The notes below the pieces were generated by a model. That model did not search any database and was not told the DNA's origin. It was given only the letters and a program-made list of their open reading frames with translations. This document shows, piece by piece, positions 842 through 11,582 of a stretch of 64,000 bases of DNA. Position numbers and translations under genes: made by a program. The DNA comes from Pseudomonadota bacterium (GTDB taxonomy: Archaea > Thermoplasmatota > SW-10-69-26 > JACQPN01 > JAJPHT01). The DNA lies in assembly GCA_021325135.1 (NCBI GenBank), contig JAJPHT010000046.1, positions 163,885-227,884 on the forward strand, in the 5' to 3' direction. Each line of letters opens with the position of its first letter. Within the stretch, counting starts at the first letter, position 1.

Positions 842-2149
<1,308 letters not shown>

Positions 2150-2439
2150 GATGGCTTGTCTCGTGGGCGGGACGTCCTCAGCGCGAAGCGCGCAGGGGTT
2201 CCGTATCGCCTGCAACCGCGACGACCCTTCGCGCCGCAGCGCGTGGGGGCCTCGCGGACGGGGGCAGACCGACCTTGAAAAGGGGCGATCGCGGGCTGCC
2301 TTGCCGGAATGTACCGATTCCAGGCCTACCGAGACGGGCATCCCATATGAACCCTCGTCTTTCCGGCCGGTGGGTTCCGGGCCGGCCTCCCTTCTCAGGG
2401 CCCCGGCGGAAGTTAGGATTTCCACCCCGGTTTCCGCGG

Positions 2440-2447
2440 TTTTATAT
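2440..2447 (+). promoter_or_regulatory. TATA-like box for the 2477 gene (likely leaderless transcript)
   Basis: TTTATATC about 30 nt upstream of ATG 2477 in a GC-rich background. Confidence 0.55.
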
Positions 2448-2476
2448 CGCGGCCGACCCCCTCGCCGGGGCTGGCG

Positions 2477-5400
2477 ATGCCTTCCGCCGAGCCTTCCCGG
2501 GTCAAGGGCCTCCTCGACCGCTACGCGCGCCAGCAGCCGCGCCGCGCGCAAGGGGGCCTCGCCAACCTCGCGGGCCTCGACTTCCAGCTTCGCTGCTATC
2601 TCGCCGCGTTCGTGGAGGAGATGGCCTCCTCGTCGGCCGTGGCGCCCGCGGGTGCGCGCTTCCTGGAGGCGCTCTCGGACCTCAGCCTCGTCTCGGACGA
2701 CGCCGTCGCGTGCGTGCAGGTGAAGCGCACCCTCACCCGCGCGAGCCTGGCCAAGGCCGCGGAGGAGGCGGTGGCGCTCGACGAGTTCCTGGAGCGCGAG
2801 GCGCCCGACCTCCACGCCGCGTTCCGCTTCGAGGTCGTGGGGCTCCTGGGCCGCGCCGACGGCTTCGCGCCGGGCTGGGAGGGCGTGCAGCTTCCCCACG
2901 ACGCCGAGGGGCGGGAGGCAAGGCAGGCCCGCTTCGAGCGCATGCTCGCGCAGGGGAAGCTCGCGCCCCCGCGCCTGGAGCCCGACCCGTGGTGGCGCGT
3001 CATCGCCGCCGCATGGCCCGTGCTGGACGAGCCGTTCGCCTTCGCCCGCGAGGCGCTGGACATCTGCCTGCGCCGCGGCCTCGACCCCTCGGGCGCGGAG
3101 CGCACGCGCGACGAGGTCGCCGAGGCGTTCGCGCGGCGCCGCCGGGACGCGGGGCTCATGGGCATGTGCCTGAGGCCCGAGGACGTGGCGGCGGACGCCC
3201 ACCAGTCGCGCGAGACCGTGCTGGGGCAGCGGCCCACCCTGGCTCACCTGCGCGACGGACGCTTCATGGAGCGTCCCGAGCGCGTGGACGCCGCGCTGGC
3301 GGAGTTGGACAGGCACGTGGCGGAGCGCGACCTGCGCCAGGAGCCCTACATCCACGCCCTCTGGATCGAAGGCCGCTCGGGCAACGGGAAGAGCGTGCTC
3401 CTCCTGAAAGCCATGCGCCGCCTCGTCGAGGAGCGCGCGGCGCCCGTGATCTGGCTCGACGACGCCAGCGAGCAGCTTCTGCCCCTCCTCCAGACGTGGG
3501 CCCGCCTGCCGGAGGGCTCCATGGGGCTCTGCTACGTCTTCGTCGACGACTTCTACTCGCCCAACAAGCGCGCCGACATCGGCTTGCCCGAGATCGCGCG
3601 CCTGCTGCGGCGCAAGGACCGCTCCGACTGGCCGGTGCTGGTCACGTGCGGGCCCCCCGAGCAGCGCCTGGAGTGGGCCGCCAGCGGGCAGGACGAGGTC
3701 TTCCGCGTCGCCCACTGGCTCCTGCCCCCCGCCGAGGCCGACGAGCGCGAGGGGCTGCGCGGCTGGTTCCGCGAGCGCACGGGCGTCGAGAGGCGCGCGG
3801 GCGCCGCCTTCGGGGAGAACGACGGCCTCATGATCTCCATGATGTTCGAGATGCGCGAAGGGGACATGGTGGAGTTCGGCCGCCGCTTCCACCAGCGCCT
3901 CAGCGACCTCAACCTCGTGGACTCCATCATCCAGCCCCTGGCCCTCAACCGCCTCTACATCTGGGCGCCGGGCCGCTGGCTGGACGAGTCGCAGAGCGAC
4001 GCGCTGCGCCGCCTCAACCAGGACCGCGACTTCTCCTTCCTCTCCTTCCGCGGCCGCCCCGACACCTACATCCGCATCACGCACCCGCACCTGAGCGACG
4101 GCATCTACAACGCGGTGCGGAGCCGCGCGGACGGCATCGTGCGGGCGCGCGACCTGCACCGCGCCTTCGAGCGCAGCCTGGACACGGACCCCACCGTCGC
4201 GCACCTCGTCCTCGAACGGGTCGCGCGGCAGCACGAGCGCCTCGCCTCGCTGGACGAGGGCGAATTGGCGCGCGGCATGGCCGCCGCGTGGCGCGCGTGG
4301 CTGGCCCGCGGCGGCGCCGCCGGCTTCCACGCCGCGCCCATGTGGACGAACTGGGCCGTCTGGAGCGCGCGCCAGCCCGAGGTCGCCGCCCTCCTGGGCG
4401 AGGCCCCCTCCGAGCATGCGGCGCGGGCGCTCCACGAGGGGCACCCCTACTGGTCCACCCTTTGGGAGCGGCTCGCGACGCTGCCCCCGGAGGCGATGGG
4501 CCCCGCGACGCGCGCCCGCCTCCTGGAGCGGGGCCACCGTTGGCTGCGCGGCAACGAGGCGCGCCCGGAATGGACGTTCGTGTGGCGCCTCCTGGTGGAC
4601 TCGCCCCCGGAGAGCCTCCCTGCGGGCATCGGACGAAGCGACCTCCTGCTCCAGGGGCTCGGCTGGCTCGCGGGGCGCGAGGACCGCCCCGAGTTCCCCT
4701 ACGTCTGGCGCCGGCTCGTGGAGTTGCGCGACGCGCTGCCGGACGCGGCCGCCCTCGACGGCGTCCTGCGCCGGGGAGAAGGATGGCTCGCGGGCCACGA
4801 GGATCGGTTCGCCTGGTCGCGCATCTGGGAGGCGCTGCTGGACCTGCGCGCCCAGGCCGCGCCCGAGCGCGCCCGCCTGCTGCGGCAAGGACGGGAATGG
4901 CTTGCCGGCCGCGAGGAGCGCCCCGAGTGGAATTTCGTCTGGAAGCGCCTCCTGGACCTGCGCGCCGAGCTTCCTCCCGGCGAGGGGGACGATCTGGCCC
5001 GCGAAGGGCGTCTCTGGCTGGTGGGGCGCGAAGAGAGCGCCCAGTGGCCCCACGTCTGGCAGAAGCTCCTGGAGACGGACCTCCCCGCGGACGTGCCGCG
5101 GAGGGACCTGCTCCTGCTGGGCCTGGGGTGGCTGCAGGGGCGCGCCGACCGCCCCGAGTGGAGCTTCGTGTGGCGCCGGCTGGTGGAAGCGCGCCGGGAG
5201 CTCTCCGGTGGGGACGCGCTGTTGATCGAGGGGCAGGCCTGGCTCTCGGGCCGCGAGGGGAACCCCGCGTGGAGCTTCGTGTGGCAAGCCCTCGCGCAGG
5301 AGCGCCAAGGGCTCCCCGCGACGGGCTCCACGGCGCTCCTGGAGGAGGGGTTCCGCTGGCTCCAGGGGCGCGAGGAGCGCCCCGAGTGGGCGTACGTGTT

Positions 5401-6811
5401 GCAAGCCCTCGTGGACCTCGGGCCCGACCTGCCCCCCGGCATCCCTCTCTCGCATCTCGTCGAGGCGGCTCTGGGGTGGGCGGCGAAGCGGCGCGCCAGG
5501 CCCGACTGGTGGCCGCTCTGGCGGAAGGTCGCCGACGGCTGCGCCCTGCTCCCGCCGGGGCCCCTGCGGGACGCGGTCCTCGCCGAAGGGAGCCAGTGGC
5601 TCGCGGAGCACCAGGATCGCCCGGAGTGGTGCTTCGTCTGGCAACGGCTCGTGGACCTCCAGGCGAAGATCGCGCCGGAGGCCGACCTCGGCCCGATCCT
5701 GCGCCAGGGGCTCGCGCGGCTCCGGGGCGGCGAGGACCGCCCCGAATGGACGCACGTGTGGAGGACGCTCGTGGACCTGCGCGCGCACATGCCGGACCAG
5801 GCGCAGGTCGCGCCGCTCCTGGAGTCCGGCCACCGCTGGCTCGCAGGCCGCGAGGAGCGCCCTGGGTGGGGCTTCGTGTGGCAGCGGCTGGTCTGGCTGC
5901 GCGACGAGCTTCCCCCTTCGATCCCCTTGGATGACCTGCTCCTGAAGGGCCGCGAGTGGCTTTCGGGCCGCGAGGGGGACCGGTCGTGGTCGTACGTGTG
6001 GGAGAGCCTGGCGGACGTCGGGAGGGAGCGCCACGGCGAGGCGGAGTTCAGCCGTCTGCTGGTCTTGGGGCATGGATGGCTCCCGGGGAACGAGGACCGC
6101 CCGGATTGGAGCTACATCTGGCGCAAGCTGCGCCGGGGGAGCGCGGACCTTCCGGGCACCCTCGACCACGACGCGCTGCTCGCCACCGGGCGCCGTTGGC
6201 TCTGCGACGGGCCGCCCCGCGGGGAGTGGCCCCTCGTCTGGCTTTCCCACCACAAGGACAAGGCGACAGGCCCCGAGGACCGGGCCTTCCTGGGCGACCT
6301 GGCGTGGGCCTGGCTCCAGCGGCCGGAGAGCCGCGCGCGCCCCGAGTGGACCCAGGTGTGGAGGACCTGCTGCAGGGCGGGCCGCCGGGACCCGGCGTTC
6401 ATGGAGGCGGGCTGGGCGCGCCTCCTCGCGCATCCTGACGCCGTGGAGGCCCCGATGCTTGCGGGCGAGCTCGTGTCGGCCTCCAGGAAACCGGGCGCCT
6501 GGGCTCCGCCCGCGGACCTCAGGGCGTGGACGCACGCGTGGCTCCGGGCGAACCCCGACAACCCCAGCTGGGCGCCCCTCTGGCGCGCCCTTTGGGGCGC
6601 GGAGAGGTCCGAGGCGAGCGCGCGGCTCGCCCTCGAATGGCTCGCCGGAGGCGCCGCCCCGGGGCGGACGGGCTCCGTCGTGAAGCGTCTCTGCCGCGAG
6701 CCGCCGCCCGACGTGCGCGCCATGCTGGAGGCGTGGCTTGCGCTCCACCCCGAGTCCCCCTTCGCCGCGCCCCTGCGCGAGGCGCTGGAGCAGCCGGCCC
6801 CGCAGGCGTGA
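2477..6811 (+). CDS. Putative STAND-like P-loop NTPase with N-terminal Cap4/DUF4297-like PD-(D/E)xK nuclease domain and C-terminal Trp-rich ~40-aa repeats
   Basis: GGLANLAGLDFQ...EALSD...VQVK at N-terminus; Walker A GRSGNGKS (3371-3394); Walker B YVFVDD; RITHPHL; repeated WLxGREERPEWxFVWxRLVDL. Confidence 0.75.
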   Translation: MPSAEPSRVKGLLDRYARQQPRRAQGGLANLAGLDFQLRCYLAAFVEEMASSSAVAPAGARFLEALSDLSLVSDDAVACVQVKRTLTRASLAKAAEEAVALDEFLEREAPDLHAAFRFEVVGLLGRADGFAPGWEGVQLPHDAEGREARQARFERMLAQGKLAPPRLEPDPWWRVIAAAWPVLDEPFAFAREALDICLRRGLDPSGAERTRDEVAEAFARRRRDAGLMGMCLRPEDVAADAHQSRETVLGQRPTLAHLRDGRFMERPERVDAALAELDRHVAERDLRQEPYIHALWIEGRSGNGKSVLLLKAMRRLVEERAAPVIWLDDASEQLLPLLQTWARLPEGSMGLCYVFVDDFYSPNKRADIGLPEIARLLRRKDRSDWPVLVTCGPPEQRLEWAASGQDEVFRVAHWLLPPAEADEREGLRGWFRERTGVERRAGAAFGENDGLMISMMFEMREGDMVEFGRRFHQRLSDLNLVDSIIQPLALNRLYIWAPGRWLDESQSDALRRLNQDRDFSFLSFRGRPDTYIRITHPHLSDGIYNAVRSRADGIVRARDLHRAFERSLDTDPTVAHLVLERVARQHERLASLDEGELARGMAAAWRAWLARGGAAGFHAAPMWTNWAVWSARQPEVAALLGEAPSEHAARALHEGHPYWSTLWERLATLPPEAMGPATRARLLERGHRWLRGNEARPEWTFVWRLLVDSPPESLPAGIGRSDLLLQGLGWLAGREDRPEFPYVWRRLVELRDALPDAAALDGVLRRGEGWLAGHEDRFAWSRIWEALLDLRAQAAPERARLLRQGREWLAGREERPEWNFVWKRLLDLRAELPPGEGDDLAREGRLWLVGREESAQWPHVWQKLLETDLPADVPRRDLLLLGLGWLQGRADRPEWSFVWRRLVEARRELSGGDALLIEGQAWLSGREGNPAWSFVWQALAQERQGLPATGSTALLEEGFRWLQGREERPEWAYVLQALVDLGPDLPPGIPLSHLVEAALGWAAKRRARPDWWPLWRKVADGCALLPPGPLRDAVLAEGSQWLAEHQDRPEWCFVWQRLVDLQAKIAPEADLGPILRQGLARLRGGEDRPEWTHVWRTLVDLRAHMPDQAQVAPLLESGHRWLAGREERPGWGFVWQRLVWLRDELPPSIPLDDLLLKGREWLSGREGDRSWSYVWESLADVGRERHGEAEFSRLLVLGHGWLPGNEDRPDWSYIWRKLRRGSADLPGTLDHDALLATGRRWLCDGPPRGEWPLVWLSHHKDKATGPEDRAFLGDLAWAWLQRPESRARPEWTQVWRTCCRAGRRDPAFMEAGWARLLAHPDAVEAPMLAGELVSASRKPGAWAPPADLRAWTHAWLRANPDNPSWAPLWRALWGAERSEASARLALEWLAGGAAPGRTGSVVKRLCREPPPDVRAMLEAWLALHPESPFAAPLREALEQPAPQA
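4430..6600 (+). repeat. Intragenic tandem repeat, ~120-nt (~40-aa) period, about 17-18 degenerate copies
   Basis: Recurrent tggct..cgggccgcgagga.cgccc.gagtgg encoding W-L-x-G-R-E-[ED]-R-P-E-W-x-[FY]-V-W. Confidence 0.9.
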
Positions 6812-6814
6812 TCG

Positions 6815-8653
6815 TCAGCTTTCCTCGGCGCTCTCGACGCGCTTGTGCCCCTGCTGCTTGAACATGGAGATGATCTCGTCCAGCGTGGTCGCCTCCTCGG
6901 GCTTCTTGTCGTCGCGCACCTTCCCGGTGAAGCGCGGGAAGCGCACGGAGAGCCCGGCCTCCTCCTTGAGGACGCCCCAGCCGGCGGTGTGCAGGGGCGA
7001 GAGCGTCAGCTCGGCGCCCACGACCTCCAGCACCTTCACGGGGGCGAACCACGCGTCGGCGGCGATCCTCGCGCGCACGCGGGGGTGGGGCCCCCCCTCG
7101 TGCTGATAGCTTTTCAGCTCCTCGGTCATGGCCTGGAGCGTGGCGTCGTCGAAGCCGGTGCCCAGCTTGCAGATGGTCTCGAAGACGTCCTCCTCGGGGT
7201 TGTACGAGGCCATGATGAGGGCGCCGTACCAGCCCGCGCGCCGGCCGCGCCCCGCGATGGCGCCCACCACCACGAGGTCCAGCGAGTCCTGGAGCTCGCT
7301 GCTGTACTCGCGCTTGTACTTGATCCATTGATAGCCCCGCGAGCCGGCCTTGTAGAAGCTGTCAGGGCCGACGCTCTTGACCATGATGCCCTCGGCGCCT
7401 TCGGCGACGCTCTGCTCGAAGAAGGCGACGACCTCCTCGGGGGTCGTGACGCGCTTCGCGCGGGAAAGCTGGATGCGCTCGAGCCCCTCCTCGTCGGCGC
7501 CGCGCGCGAGGTCGAAGCTGCGCGTCAGCGCCTCGCGGCGCTCGGGGAGCGGCTTCTCCGTGAGGTCCTCGCCGTCCAGGAGGAGGCAGTCGAAGAGGAA
7601 GAGCGTCACGGGCACCTCCGCGATGACCTCCTCCACGTTCTTCCTGCCGCGGCGCTTCGCCACCTCCTGGAAGGGCTTCATGTCGCCCGTCTGCGGGTCC
7701 ACCGCGACGACCTCGCCCTCCACGATGGCCTCGCGGCCGCGGAACGACTCGCGCAGATAGCCCGCGACGTCGGGGAACTGCCGCGTGAGGTCCTCCAGCC
7801 GCCGGCTGTAGAAATGGATGGCGCCCTGCGCCGGGATGTGCGCCTGGAGGCGCAGCCCGTCGTACTTCAGCTCGCAGAGCCCCTCGCCGCCCATCTTGGC
7901 GAGGATCTCCTCGGGCGTGGGCAGGCGCTCCGCGAGCATGGCGCGCATGGGCACGCCCACCTGCGCGCGCATCTCCTCCACCGCCGCGAGGCCGCCCTTG
8001 AGCAGCGTCTCGCCCACGAGGCCCAGGTCGCTGCACACGTTGTACGCGCGCTCCAGGTCGGGGCGGTACTCCTTGGTGGCGAAGGCCGCCGCCATGGCGT
8101 CGAGGATCGTCATGTCCGCGATTCCCAGGCGCAGCTTCCCCGTGACGGTGCGCACGAGGTAGCGCGCCTCGCGGGGGCTCGCGCGGGCGAGGAGCTTCTG
8201 GAGGAGCGAGAGCTTGCCCGACTGCGAGCCGGCGCCCGCGGAGCGCGCGATCTCGTGGAAGCGCTCGAACACCTCGGTGACGGGCATGGAGGCCTGCGGC
8301 TGGTTCTCCTCGGCGAAGAGGCTCGCCTGGCGCCGGCGCGCCTTGCGCTGCGAGAGCACCTCGAAGGCCGCGTCGCCCAGGTCGCCCGCCTTGTGGTACG
8401 CCTTGGTGAGGTCCTCCTCGGAGACGCCGGTGGACTCGTGGAGCGCGCGCATGACGAGCTTCTCCGCGACGCCAAGCTCGATGCCCTCGAAGTCGGCCGC
8501 CAGCTGCCCGCGGGTGAGGTACACGACCGCGCGCAGGTCGCCGTCCGCCTCGCGCAGCAGCTCCACGAGGATGTCCGTCATCTCCAGGCGCTTGGTCGTC
8601 TCCTCCAGCCGCTCGTAGAACTGGCAGAGGCGCTCGTAGTCCACGCTGGGCAC
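6815..8653 (-). CDS. lig: ATP-dependent DNA ligase (archaeal type)
   Basis: KYDGLR motif I, VEGEVV, LFDCL, EGIMVK, WIKYK, LDLVVVG, RFPRF; GTG start at 8653 preceded by GGAGG. Confidence 0.96.
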   Translation of the reverse strand: MPSVDYERLCQFYERLEETTKRLEMTDILVELLREADGDLRAVVYLTRGQLAADFEGIELGVAEKLVMRALHESTGVSEEDLTKAYHKAGDLGDAAFEVLSQRKARRRQASLFAEENQPQASMPVTEVFERFHEIARSAGAGSQSGKLSLLQKLLARASPREARYLVRTVTGKLRLGIADMTILDAMAAAFATKEYRPDLERAYNVCSDLGLVGETLLKGGLAAVEEMRAQVGVPMRAMLAERLPTPEEILAKMGGEGLCELKYDGLRLQAHIPAQGAIHFYSRRLEDLTRQFPDVAGYLRESFRGREAIVEGEVVAVDPQTGDMKPFQEVAKRRGRKNVEEVIAEVPVTLFLFDCLLLDGEDLTEKPLPERREALTRSFDLARGADEEGLERIQLSRAKRVTTPEEVVAFFEQSVAEGAEGIMVKSVGPDSFYKAGSRGYQWIKYKREYSSELQDSLDLVVVGAIAGRGRRAGWYGALIMASYNPEEDVFETICKLGTGFDDATLQAMTEELKSYQHEGGPHPRVRARIAADAWFAPVKVLEVVGAELTLSPLHTAGWGVLKEEAGLSVRFPRFTGKVRDDKKPEEATTLDEIISMFKQQGHKRVESAEES

Positions 8654-8694
8654 TTGGCCTCCGCCCGGATATGCCCTTGCCCGGGCGCGGGTCC

Positions 8695-8928
8695 CTACTC
8701 GTGGGAGCGCAGCGCGCGGTGGTGCAGCTCCACGACGCGCTCGAAGCCCCACGCGACGATGACGAGGCCCACCAGCGCGACCGCGCGCCCCGCCACGTCC
8801 AGCGCGGGCGTCGCGTAGCGGAGCCCCACGTTCACGAGCGCGGCCAGCTGGGAGAGGCCCATGAGCGTCCAGCCGAGCAGGCGCAGGCGCACGAGGCGGT
8901 GCTCCGCCCGGATCACGCTGGCCGCCAT
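8695..8928 (-). CDS. Small two-helix membrane protein
   Basis: Two hydrophobic stretches; ATG 8928 with GGGGGAG upstream. Confidence 0.55.
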   Translation of the reverse strand: MAASVIRAEHRLVRLRLLGWTLMGLSQLAALVNVGLRYATPALDVAGRAVALVGLVIVAWGFERVVELHHRALRSHE

Positions 8929-9016
8929 CGCTCCCCCTGGGCCGCGGGGGGCGTTTCTTCTCTGCGGCCGAAGCATGGGCGAGAAAGGCCAAGGGCGCGG
9001 CGCGCGAGGTCCCCGC

Positions 9017-9340
9017 ATGGACGACAAGGCGTCGACGCGCCCCCGGGGCCGCGCGCGGCCGGACCCCGGGAGGCCCGATCACCAGCCCGGCCTCGATGAC
9101 GCGCCCGGCGCGCCCGCGGCGAGCCCGCTGGGCCGCGGCGCGAACCCGGGCACGGTCCCCGACACGTACCCCCTCGCCGATCCGCGCGGCAGCATCGCGG
9201 GCCTGCGCGGCATGGACGTGCCTGGCGCGCGGGGCGGGCCCTCGGGCTTCGAGGACCGCGAGAACGAGGACGTGACGCCCCGCGCGCGGCGAGGCGCGAC
9301 CGAGGGCATCCAGTCCGAGGACAACGAGGCGGAGCGCTGA
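9017..9340 (+). CDS. Small low-complexity (disordered) hypothetical protein
   Basis: MDDKAS... fills the gap between genes; Pro/Gly/Asp-rich. Confidence 0.45.
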   Translation: MDDKASTRPRGRARPDPGRPDHQPGLDDAPGAPAASPLGRGANPGTVPDTYPLADPRGSIAGLRGMDVPGARGGPSGFEDRENEDVTPRARRGATEGIQSEDNEAER

Positions 9341-10090
<750 letters not shown>

Positions 10091-10128
10091 GCAGCGCGCA
10101 GCCGTGCGGCCTCGGATGAGGGTTTGCG

Positions 10129-10158
10129 GAAAAAAGGGGCGGTCCCGAGCGGGACCCG
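10129..10158 (-). terminator. Hairpin plus U-tract terminator
   Basis: Minus strand reads GGTCCCG-CT-CGGGACC followed by GCCCCTTTTTT directly after stop at 10161. Confidence 0.55.
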
Positions 10159-10160
10159 GG

Positions 10161-10229
10161 CTACTTCTTGGCGTTGGCCTTGGTCATGTGAAGGATGAGC
10201 ATGGCCTCGCCACTCGTATCATCAATCAC
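10161..10229 (-). CDS. Candidate ~22-aa micropeptide (MIDDTSGEAMLILHMTKANAKK)
   Basis: GTG at 10229 with AT-richer box CTCAATAC about 22 nt upstream and a terminator right after the stop. Confidence 0.3.
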   Translation of the reverse strand: MIDDTSGEAMLILHMTKANAKK

Positions 10230-10324
10230 GCCCGGAACGTCGTCCGCGCAGGTATTGAGAGTTGCGGTTCGACCCCCGACGCGACCCGTCACTTTGACGG
10301 CGGCTGGCGGCCTGTGCGCTCCCG

Positions 10325-10699
10325 CTAACGCTGGATGAGCAGGAACTCGTTGCCGTCCGGATCGGCGATGGTCGCGTAGGTGGGGCCCCAGGGCGCCTTC
10401 CAGGCCTCGTCCACGATGTGGCCGCCGCGCTTGCGGATCTCCTCCGCGCTGGCCTTGGCGTCGCGGGCGGTGAACATGACGCCCGTGATGGTGCCCGGCG
10501 GCCTGCCCGGCTCGTTGGGGCGCATGACGTGGGCGACGAGGGTCGCGCCGCCGGGGATCTGCCAGACGCCGCGCCCGTCGCCCTCCTCCCAGGAGAGCTC
10601 CTTGAGCCCCAGCACGCGGGAGTAGAACTCGCGGGCCTTGCCCTTGTTCGGCTCGGTGAGGTGGACCGTGATCGCGTCGAGCCCCTGGATGACGTCCAT
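10325..10699 (-). CDS. VOC/glyoxalase family protein
   Basis: AREFYSRVLGL, PWG, DPDGNEF motifs. Confidence 0.9.
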   Translation of the reverse strand: MDVIQGLDAITVHLTEPNKGKAREFYSRVLGLKELSWEEGDGRGVWQIPGGATLVAHVMRPNEPGRPPGTITGVMFTARDAKASAEEIRKRGGHIVDEAWKAPWGPTYATIADPDGNEFLLIQR

Positions 10700-10727
10700 G
10701 CGTCCCCGGCACGCGCGGGGGACCGCT

Positions 10728-11582
10728 TCAAGGCCACCGGTAGAAGCCCTGCCCCGACTTCTGGCCCAGCCTCCCCTCGGCCACCATGCGGCGCAGCAGC
10801 GCGGGCGGCTCGAAGCGCCGGCCCAGCGTCTTCGAGAGGCCCTCGGCGATGTGCAGGCGCACGTCGAGGCCCACCAGGTCCGTGAGCCGCAGCGGCCCCA
10901 TGGGGTGGTTGTAGCCCAGCGTCATCGCCTTGTCGATGTCCTCGGGGCTCGCCACGTCCTCCTCCACCATGCGGATGGCCTCCAGGCCCAGCGTGACGCC
11001 CAGGCGCGAGGTGGCGAAGCCGGGCGAGTCGCGCACGACGATGGGCTCCTTGCCCATGCGGCGCGCGAGGTCCACCACGGCGGCGGCCGCGGCGTCCGAC
11101 GTCGCGGGCGCGCGCACGACCTCGACCAGCTTCATCACGGGGACCGGGTTGAAGAAGTGCATGCCCACGACGCGGCCGCGCTCCGCCTCGGGCAGGCCCG
11201 CCGCGATCTCCGCGATGGGCAGGCTCGACGTGTTGCTGGCCAGCACCGCGTGGCGCGGCGCGAGGCGCAGCGCGTCGGCGAGCACGCCGCGCTTGAGGTC
11301 CATCCGCTCGGGCACGGCCTCCACCACGAGGTCCGCCTGCTGGAGCGCGGCGGGGAGGTCCGTGGTGGGCCGCACGCGGGCGAGCGCGGCGTCGGCCTCC
11401 TCGCGCGTGGCCTTCCCCTTCTCCACGGCCTTCTCCAGGCTCTTCCGGATGCCCGCGAGGCCCTTCTCCACGGCGGCGTCGTTCACGTCGCGCAGCGCCA
11501 CCTCCGCGCCCGCGAGCGCGGCGACCTGCGCGATGCCGTGGCCCATGGTGCCCGCGCCCAGGACGGTGACGTGGCGGATCAT
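10728..11582 (-). CDS. 3-hydroxyacyl-CoA dehydrogenase
   Basis: GAGTMGHGIAQ, EAVPE...K, ASNTSS, GMHFFNP, HPMGPL. Confidence 0.95.
   Translation of the reverse strand: MIRHVTVLGAGTMGHGIAQVAALAGAEVALRDVNDAAVEKGLAGIRKSLEKAVEKGKATREEADAALARVRPTTDLPAALQQADLVVEAVPERMDLKRGVLADALRLAPRHAVLASNTSSLPIAEIAAGLPEAERGRVVGMHFFNPVPVMKLVEVVRAPATSDAAAAAVVDLARRMGKEPIVVRDSPGFATSRLGVTLGLEAIRMVEEDVASPEDIDKAMTLGYNHPMGPLRLTDLVGLDVRLHIAEGLSKTLGRRFEPPALLRRMVAEGRLGQKSGQGFYRWP

Follow-up and report, generated by a model that had tools for sequence, protein, structure and literature searches.

Antiviral STAND (Avs) and NLR-like receptors form a major and mostly uncharted arm of prokaryotic immunity, in which the sensor sets what gets recognized. 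For SeAvs3 and SeAvs7, which have a Cap4-STAND-TPR layout, ligand binding at the sensor relieves autoinhibition and drives tetramerization of the nuclease, and in solved Avs proteins the sensor role falls to the C-terminal helical repeats (10.64898/2026.01.04.697583). The DNA considered here, herein the window, is a 64,000-nucleotide stretch of contig JAJPHT010000046.1. Its gene P0001 encodes a protein that combines an N-terminal nuclease-type domain, a STAND NTPase module and a long array of Trp-rich repeats. We read P0001 as a one-gene Avs-like (antiviral STAND or NLR-like) immune receptor with the Trp repeats as its predicted sensor arm, and put the probability of this reading at roughly 0.65; the immune role is suggested by the architecture of the protein, the swapping of effector domains among its relatives, the dynamics of the repeats, the defense genes that neighbor related loci and the mobility of the gene. 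The parts of P0001 are as follows.

2477..6811, + strand: complete open reading frame of P0001, 1444 residues, with a TGA stop codon at 6809-6811
2477..3196, + strand: predicted effector domain with a Cap4/DUF4297-type PD-(D/E)xK nuclease fold (residues 1-240; predicted structure, family conservation)
2678-2680, + strand: D68 of the nuclease domain, an invariant residue
2717-2725, + strand: Q81-x-K83 of the nuclease domain, K83 invariant and Q81 nearly invariant
3209..4384, + strand: STAND NTPase module with nucleotide-binding, helical and winged-helix domains (residues 245-636; Pfam PF25199, VIA)
3371-3394, + strand: Walker A, G-R-S-G-N-G-K-S (residues 299-306)
3533-3550, + strand: Walker B, ending in D357-D358
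4385..6646, + strand: 18 Trp-rich helical-hairpin repeats (residues 637-1390; motif anchoring, AlphaFold2 model)
4505-6280, + strand: the 15 best repeat units (residues 677-1268)
6647..6808, + strand: C-terminal helical tail without an S1 domain (residues 1391-1444; helices in the model)

The order of these parts (Cap4-type nuclease, STAND NTPase, long helical-repeat C terminus) is common to Avs3, Avs7 and P0001, and each element of the tripartite Avs layout can be assigned: a nuclease fold at residues 29-222, the NTPase at residues 245-636 and the repeat solenoid at residues 637-1390. A preliminary description of this DNA had proposed the repeats as a putative sensor domain; the array does sit at the sensor location of STAND and NLR proteins, following the Cap4-like nuclease and the nSTAND5 NTPase. 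P0001 nevertheless differs from Avs3 and Avs7. It has no detectable sequence similarity to them (a PDB sequence search with the whole protein gave no matches at E ≤ 1), its NTPase belongs to another clade, nSTAND5, and where Avs3 and Avs7 have irregular TPR-like helices it has a regular array of one conserved Trp-rich unit. The kind of system, a STAND receptor with a helical-repeat sensor, is already known, as is the NTPase clade. The Trp repeat, its hypervariable triad and its amplification dynamics were not found described in the literature consulted, in which a 2026 survey of 589 STAND clades (PMC13581612) may list the clade in a supplementary table outside the part covered; neither nSTAND5 nor PF25199 was found in the searchable supplements of that survey, which do not extend to its large clade table. 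Papers retrieved on Trp-rich repeats concern IRFs and malaria antigens, and none deals with STAND proteins.

An AlphaFold2 model of residues 1-640, built on 59 relatives, has a mean predicted local distance difference test (pLDDT) score of 91.0. Among solved structures, Foldseek ranks the complex of Avs3 with phage terminase first (8dgc_A, E 1.2e-7) and after it SAMD9, Avs4, CED-4, Apaf-1 and Avs5. The model places an α-β-β-β-α-β nuclease core at residues 31-124, with D68 before strand 2 and Q81-x-K83 in strand 3; D68 and K83 are invariant in the 59 relatives and Q81 is at least 90% conserved. Cap4 has been named as a homolog of the HerA-associated DUF (10.1101/2024.10.24.620088), and residues 29-222 of P0001 superpose on the DUF4297 protein of a HerA-DUF complex (chain 9c1m_G; VIA-align Z 13.4, root-mean-square deviation [rmsd] 3.2, 172 residues aligned), with which they have the conserved D...Q-x-K motif in common. 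In P0001, however, the fusion partner of this domain is a STAND NTPase, where Cap4 has a SAVED domain and DUF4297 acts together with HerA. The supplement of the Avs study names a Q79A-K81A mutant of Se2Avs7 (10.64898/2026.01.04.697583), presumably a nuclease-dead control, in which the Q-x-K lies almost at the position of Q81-x-K83. On the strength of the model, residues 1-240 are predicted to adopt a Cap4/DUF4297-type nuclease fold.

Over the whole of P0001, nSTAND_NTPase5 (PF25199) is the sole family found by Pfam; it matches residues 250-359 (E 1.6e-8, 34.9 bits against a gathering cut-off of 34) and is present in 12 of 12 close relatives (best E 7.9e-11). The Pfam model spans only ~100 residues of the NTPase, and neither the repeat nor the N-terminal domain has a Pfam model. 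G302, G304, K305 and S306 of Walker A, together with D357, are invariant in the 59 relatives. Residues 222-638 superpose on the STAND module of SAMD9 (VIA-align Z 17.0, rmsd 5.3, 344 residues aligned) and, at lower Z, on NLRC4 (12.0), AVAST5 (11.9), MalT (8bob_C; 11.7) and Apaf-1 (10.8). Other searches returned little: NCBIfam gave a chance match to Hda (E 0.042), the ESM Atlas gave no usable match for P0001 or its repeat, and Rfam had no matches on the 64-kb window.

Defining the repeat units by anchoring on the motif E-W-x-x-V-W yields an array of 18 units of 37 to 41 residues (residues 637-1390), of which 16 are canonical; the first and the last two are degenerate. Alignment of the 18 units gives the consensus xxxxxLLxxGxxWLxGRExRPEWxxVWxxLxxxxxxLPxx, in which W23 and W27 are conserved in at least 90% of the units and W13 in 16 of 18. 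Identity of the protein to itself at a lag of 40 residues is 0.221, as against a maximum of 0.138 over 200 shuffles. The preliminary description, which had read about 17 to 18 copies of a triple-Trp motif between 4430 and 6600, is borne out on copy number (the mapped region, 4385-6646, encloses that span), on the motif, which agrees with the alignment consensus, and on the set T, P, S, N, A, W, C and G that it gave for the residue following the second Trp. Its near-exact 120-nt period holds in part: self-identity of the DNA peaks at lags of 120, 240 and 360 and nine of 16 unit spacings are exactly 40 residues, but the others range from 37 to 41, and Tandem Repeats Finder reported no arrays over 3000-9000 because the units are only ~50% identical at the DNA level (maximum 60%; ~31% for protein, comparing seven units of exactly 40 residues). 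With a mean internal identity of 0.35, the repeat copies in the window are old and diverged. All 18 profile matches in the host's own genome lie inside the P0001 reading frame, with no paralog found there, and the array shows no unit-by-unit correspondence with those of the relatives P0016, P0023, P0005 and P0036.

A contig of 7627 nt in one probable source run spans 2080-7500 with 0 differences, and three low-depth runs from a second study contribute short pieces with 0 to 1 differences. A repeat-number variant among strains, a comparison that the preliminary description had put forward, can be neither claimed nor excluded from these runs, and no RNA run was among those listed as carrying this DNA. 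Apparent copy-number joints in the reads were rejected as noise; they rest on 21 to 38 matching letters on one side and a likeness of 88%.

In an AlphaFold2 model of residues 620-1444 (pLDDT 86.8; predicted template modeling score 0.52) the region consists entirely of helical hairpins, two helices per unit. Each unit follows one plan: helix A at positions 1-15, the loop G-R-E-D-R-P-E at 16-22, helix B at 23-36 and the linker L-P-x-x at 37-40. In the model the repeat region is accordingly an α-solenoid of helical hairpins, as had been proposed from the sequence. The best solved Foldseek matches are HAT/TPR solenoids (8ro2_I from the spliceosome, Ctr9, SKI3, PRPF6 and IFT-A; E ~1e-6, TM-scores 0.14-0.38, identity 9-14%). 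VIA-align, run over the Foldseek list and 48,161 representative chains, adds the HEAT/ARM solenoids of AP adaptors, mTOR, CAND1 and karyopherin and a Pumilio domain at Z 12-15.6, values that the tool itself flags as common among helical repeats; no row stands clear. Assignment by fold to a specific known repeat family was therefore set aside, only generic α-solenoids having been retrieved. The fold class, judged from the model, is an ordinary α-α solenoid, TPR/HAT/HEAT-like and with no new architecture; 25 relatives have a TPR-length period of 34 residues.

At the level of sequence the picture differs. Pfam found no family in residues 620-1444 alone at E ≤ 10 (no TPR, HAT or Sel1), and the best match of the repeat profile to PDB sequences was a chance match to a kinase (E 0.24). 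Pfam, NCBIfam and PADLOC contain no model that matches the Trp repeat, and by these searches it is outside every catalogued sequence family; the earlier statement that it matches no TPR, ankyrin, Sel1 or WD40 consensus stands, and a strong match to a described repeat family, which would have refuted it, was found neither in these three libraries nor among PDB sequences. In the model the array stacks two-helix hairpins as a solenoid, as TPR and HAT proteins do, and the 34-residue period of the 25 relatives is that of TPR; it departs from them in the 40-residue period of the window (against 34), in the absence of a Pfam match and in the low TM-scores. The conserved positions G10, W13, L14, G16-P21, W23, V26, W27 and L30 differ from the TPR signature.

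The repeat is rare. Of 1,835,955,588 representative proteins searched with a profile of 40 positions built from the 18 units, 218 matched at E ≤ 1e-3; 158 of these pass E ≤ 1e-10 and 73 pass E ≤ 1e-30. The number of matched units per protein is 2 to 28. A word-indexed search gave 32 proteins, 25 of which carry PF25199, and among 28 repeat proteins scanned with Pfam, 27 have PF25199 at E ≤ 0.01, the exception being truncated N-terminally. The 89 members of at least 900 residues have 3 to 25 copies (median 8). Repeat periods are bimodal, with modes of 34 residues in 25 proteins and 40 residues in 38. The N terminus varies: 68 other fetched proteins have a nuclease-type domain like that of P0001, and the alternatives include TIR_2 (P0034), CHAT (P0125) and Trypsin_2 (P0144; weakly in P0049). 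Such swapping of N-terminal effectors, read here from domain matches, is typical of conflict systems.

Across the family, positions L6, G10, W13, L14, G16-P21, W23, V26, W27, L30, L37 and P38 are fixed. Of the 91 arrays that have four or more full units, 31 average an internal identity of 0.6 or higher and 38 contain a pair of at least 0.8 identity; judged by this identity, these are recently amplified arrays. Bacterial loci with near-identical repeats include those of Variovorax and Rubrivivax (L030, L029). Comparison of 597 within-protein repeat pairs of 70-99% identity shows where newly diverging units differ: position 24 in 58% of pairs, position 28 in 56%, position 25 in 45%, position 29 in 29% and positions 32 and 12 in 27% each. 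W13, W23, L37 and P38 differ in 0-1% of pairs, as do all three Trp. Because pairs from one protein are not independent, a count per protein was also made: over 24 proteins whose arrays are conserved internally, positions 24 and 28 each rank in the top three 12 times and position 25 five times. On a helical wheel (geometry, not measured on the model) positions 24, 25, 28 and 32 lie opposite the stripe formed by W23, V26, W27 and L30, so that 24, 25 and 28 would be on the solvent side of helix B, next to invariant Trp. In the window protein, where the units are old, variation is spread across all exposed positions.

The residues admitted at these positions are restricted: S/A/T/N at 24, Y/F/H at 25 (84%) and Q/R/E at 28 (81%). 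N-Y-Q, a triplet found in 54 units from 37 proteins, is 3.6-fold more frequent than expected. In all, there are 253 distinct triplets in 810 units, the ten most common of which make up 31%. Positions 24, 25 and 28 are outside the pairs with the highest mutual information. The mean net charge per unit is -2.5, that of the exposed helix-B face is +0.09, and the isoelectric point (pI) of the window repeat domain is 5.8.

This pattern invites comparison with fungal NLRs, whose WD40, ANK and TPR repeats are described as variable in number, often near-identical within a protein and variable at a few positions of the predicted binding face (Dyrka et al. 2014, PMC4986451). Both sets are STAND proteins with swapped effectors, amplified arrays and focused variability. 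They differ in that the hosts here are prokaryotes, the repeat type is another, the window array is diverged (0.35) and positive selection is not demonstrated. Taken over the related proteins, the arrays of this family evidently gain, lose and diversify units fast, and in many lineages. A sensor of such regularity, with a fixed Trp scaffold and three neighboring variable positions per unit, makes specificity experimentally tractable.

The surroundings of bacterial relatives were analyzed with PADLOC on 14 loci with their flanks, the counts being without a background control. At L013 (2824-6927), in a metagenome-assembled genome (MAG) of Spartobacteria, SIR2 (320 bits) and HerA (597 bits), as a complete pair, and PDC-S31 lie directly upstream of the family member and form a small defense island. 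The neighbors at L015 are AbiLi and AbiLii, and those at L029 are pieces of a type IV restriction-like system, Vsr and BovA; L023, L028, L020, L024, L011 and L022 have single or weaker matches.

By analogy with Avs3, Avs4 and Avs7, the mechanism we propose is that the solenoid keeps the receptor autoinhibited until, on invasion, it binds a conserved viral molecule, which is most likely a protein; NTP-dependent oligomerization would then gather the nuclease domains, which would cut up DNA and so abort the infection. In each unit the three Trp together with L6, G10, L14, V26 and L30 would form a fixed core and the loop G-R-E-D-R-P a conserved ridge, while the exposed side of helix B (24, 25 and 28; to a lesser extent 29 and 32) would carry the residues that determine specificity. 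The nSTAND5 NTPase would serve as both nucleotide-driven switch and oligomerization module.

The mobility of the gene is seen in its genomic setting, where the DNA around P0001 is ~74% G+C. The features of the insertion are these.

2390..6811, no strand: single-gene insertion of ~4.4 kb between the helicase and ligase genes (tblastx, boundary alignment; left boundary approximate)
2440..2447, + strand: TTTTATAT, octamer resembling an archaeal TATA box, ~30 nt before the ATG, which stands out in ~74% G+C

The flanking genes are a DEAD-box RNA helicase gene (- strand, ending at 842) and a gene for a Dnl1-type ATP-dependent DNA ligase (TIGR00574, 484 bits). In genome G002 of the same genus, whose ligase is 85% identical, the gap between ligase and helicase is ~150-190 bp, as against ~4.57 kb in the window, and P0001 was not found in 40 related genomes (among them four of the same genus and four of the same family). 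The receptor stop codon (TGA, 6809-6811) and the convergent ligase stop codon (6815-6817, - strand) are 3 nt apart, leaving no space for a terminator between the two genes. The octamer TTTTATAT is a possible archaeal promoter for a leaderless or short-leader mRNA; if this TATA-like box is real, a promoter in host style serves the inserted gene of bacterial type. The host is probably archaeal: it has a Dnl1-type ligase and a match to archaeal-type RNase P RNA (68.5 bits, below the cut-off, with a model that also matches bacterial control genomes), and its genome gave no match to bacterial-type RNase P. All 23 related loci from reference genomes carry bacterial titles, namely Acidobacteria (the closest, 61% identical), Anaerolineae, Planctomycetota, Verrucomicrobia-like, Myxococcales and many Betaproteobacteria. 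The gene was most likely acquired from a bacterium by a probable archaeon, the direction of transfer being read from this distribution of sequences, and the window copy would document how a STAND receptor of bacterial type was taken up cleanly as a single gene.

Several observations weigh against an Avs-like immune receptor. No experimentally tested member of this nSTAND5 Trp-repeat clade was found in the literature consulted, and PADLOC detected no families in P0001 at E ≤ 1 with a library dated 2023, which may not cover the clade. Cap4_nuclease (PF14130) has no match at E ≤ 1 in P0001 and none in the 12 closest members; P0024 alone has a weak match, at 21.4 bits below the cut-off of 26.2. 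The nuclease call rests on the fold, the invariant D68 and K83 with near-invariant Q81, this P0024 match and a match to LmuA at E 0.77 that appeared, beside S1 domains (from the relatives' tails) and P-loops, when a 59-member family profile was compared with PDB sequences. The PF25199 score of P0001 is barely over its cut-off. The gene lies between housekeeping genes, outside any defense island, and no PADLOC neighbor was found at five of the 14 bacterial loci (L012, L019, L030, L009 and L021), with several others weak and no background control. The archaeal identity of the host is no more than probable, drawing as it does on the subthreshold archaeal RNase P match, the lack of a bacterial one and the ligase. 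Nucleic acid-binding S1 or R3H tails in about one-third of long relatives fit a protein ligand less obviously.

Selection at the variable positions adds to these reservations. The ratio of nonsynonymous to synonymous differences (pN/pS), a crude codon count over nine bacterial loci at a site set picked from overlapping protein data, is 0.71 at positions 24, 25, 28, 29 and 32 and 0.39 elsewhere; it is thus below 1 overall at the variable sites, and pN exceeds pS in three of the nine loci only. Constraint at these sites is relaxed or diversifying. The diversifying surface on a fixed scaffold that the preliminary description had inferred is partly supported: in the relatives, differences concentrate at 24, 28 and 25 and the Trp are almost unchanged, but this ratio does not show positive selection, and in P0001 itself the variation is diffuse.

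One alternative is that the Trp repeat reads RNA or single-stranded DNA in the manner of PUF proteins, with the 24/25/28 triad of each unit as the reading residues, so that the receptor fires on a viral transcript or single-stranded DNA with the help of S1 or R3H tails. The three most variable positions are spaced i, i+1 and i+4, and their restricted residue classes, with the 3.6-fold excess of N-Y-Q, would suit such a reader. PUF recognition positions 12, 13 and 16 resemble the residue classes at 24, 25 and 28. A PUF unit of 36 residues compares with 34 to 40 here, both proteins form a crescent solenoid, and the Pumilio domain 3q0q_A ranks fourth of the 48,161 chains (Z 13.4, rmsd 6.8, 324 of 343 residues aligned), with Pumilio1 at Z 13.5, the superposition covering nearly the whole PUM domain. 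However, Z values of ~13 are common for helical repeats by the tool's own range, PUF units have three helices and these two, and Pfam PUF has no match in P0001 and a single subthreshold one (18.8 bits) in the relative P0058. The units are also acidic, the helix-B face is close to neutral and the pI of the window repeat domain is 5.8. The triplets, moreover, are more diverse than those of PUF and far less discrete than a base code, and the triad is not coupled by mutual information. S1-type tails occur in 29 of the 89 long members, and R3H in one relative, but P0001 itself has neither. We regard this reading as unlikely, and its fuller form, a prokaryotic PUF-like programmable reader whose amplified arrays re-aim the STAND switch at viral RNA or single-stranded DNA with S1/R3H tails as auxiliary clamps, as decidedly unlikely. 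If a nucleic acid code did exist, the repeat could serve as a designable binding module, with immune specificity written in repeat code.

Improbable, too, is a purely structural or regulatory role for the repeats, in which they would be a scaffold for autoinhibition or oligomerization, the trigger would be sensed elsewhere (by S1 tails or a partner) and the variable sites would be unconstrained surface. In its favor, pN/pS at those sites is below 1, the family-wide conservation of the G-R-E-D-R-P loop suggests a shared intramolecular or self-contact surface, and repeats are not conserved one to one between relatives. Yet variability is not uniform over the exposed sites; it is concentrated at three neighboring helix-B positions with restricted residue classes. 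Fast turnover of copy number with near-identical units, seen in this family, is likewise described for recognition repeats in fungal NLRs (PMC4986451), and in solved Avs proteins the C-terminal helical repeats are the sensor (10.64898/2026.01.04.697583).

That P0001 is a non-immune STAND regulator of the MalT or AfsR kind, its repeat binding a cellular metabolite or partner, is very improbable: the NTPase module does match MalT, among others, in structure, the neighbors are housekeeping genes and PADLOC is silent, but P0001 has no DNA-binding output domain, its N terminus has a nuclease fold where relatives carry TIR, CHAT or trypsin (death or defense effectors), and the gene is sporadic and was inserted alone.

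The C-terminal tails of the relatives have up to five S1 domains; in P0114, P0051 and P0058 there are tails whose S1 domains, four or five in number, also match the S1 model of RRP5 type, and R3H closes one of them. We take the combination of HAT-like repeats with multiple S1 domains to recall the eukaryotic rRNA-processing factor Rrp5. With no Pfam, NCBIfam or PADLOC model of the repeat to draw on, annotation at present labels Trp-repeat proteins as hypothetical or names just their S1 tail.

Two related loci have interrupted genes. In the closest relative, L010 (Acidobacteria MAG, 2488-5665), the gene is split into open reading frames at 2488-3999 and 4001-5665 in different frames, which may reflect a frameshift, a pseudogene or an assembly error; L021 is similarly split (7728-9548 and 9545-10915).

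Within the phylum of the host, the repeat region was found in one of 400 other genomes, as a distant one-Trp cousin repeat without the NTPase. This locus (L043, 1066-3351, G312:C34) has a 761-residue open reading frame of ~38-residue cousin repeats with no Pfam match. Its unit, A-S-x-x-W-L-x-A-N-x-x-R-P-E-A-x-F-V-L-x-x-L-L-x-R-x-D-L, keeps the first Trp alone, and together with the Trp repeat it may be part of a larger superfamily of repeats that is not catalogued.

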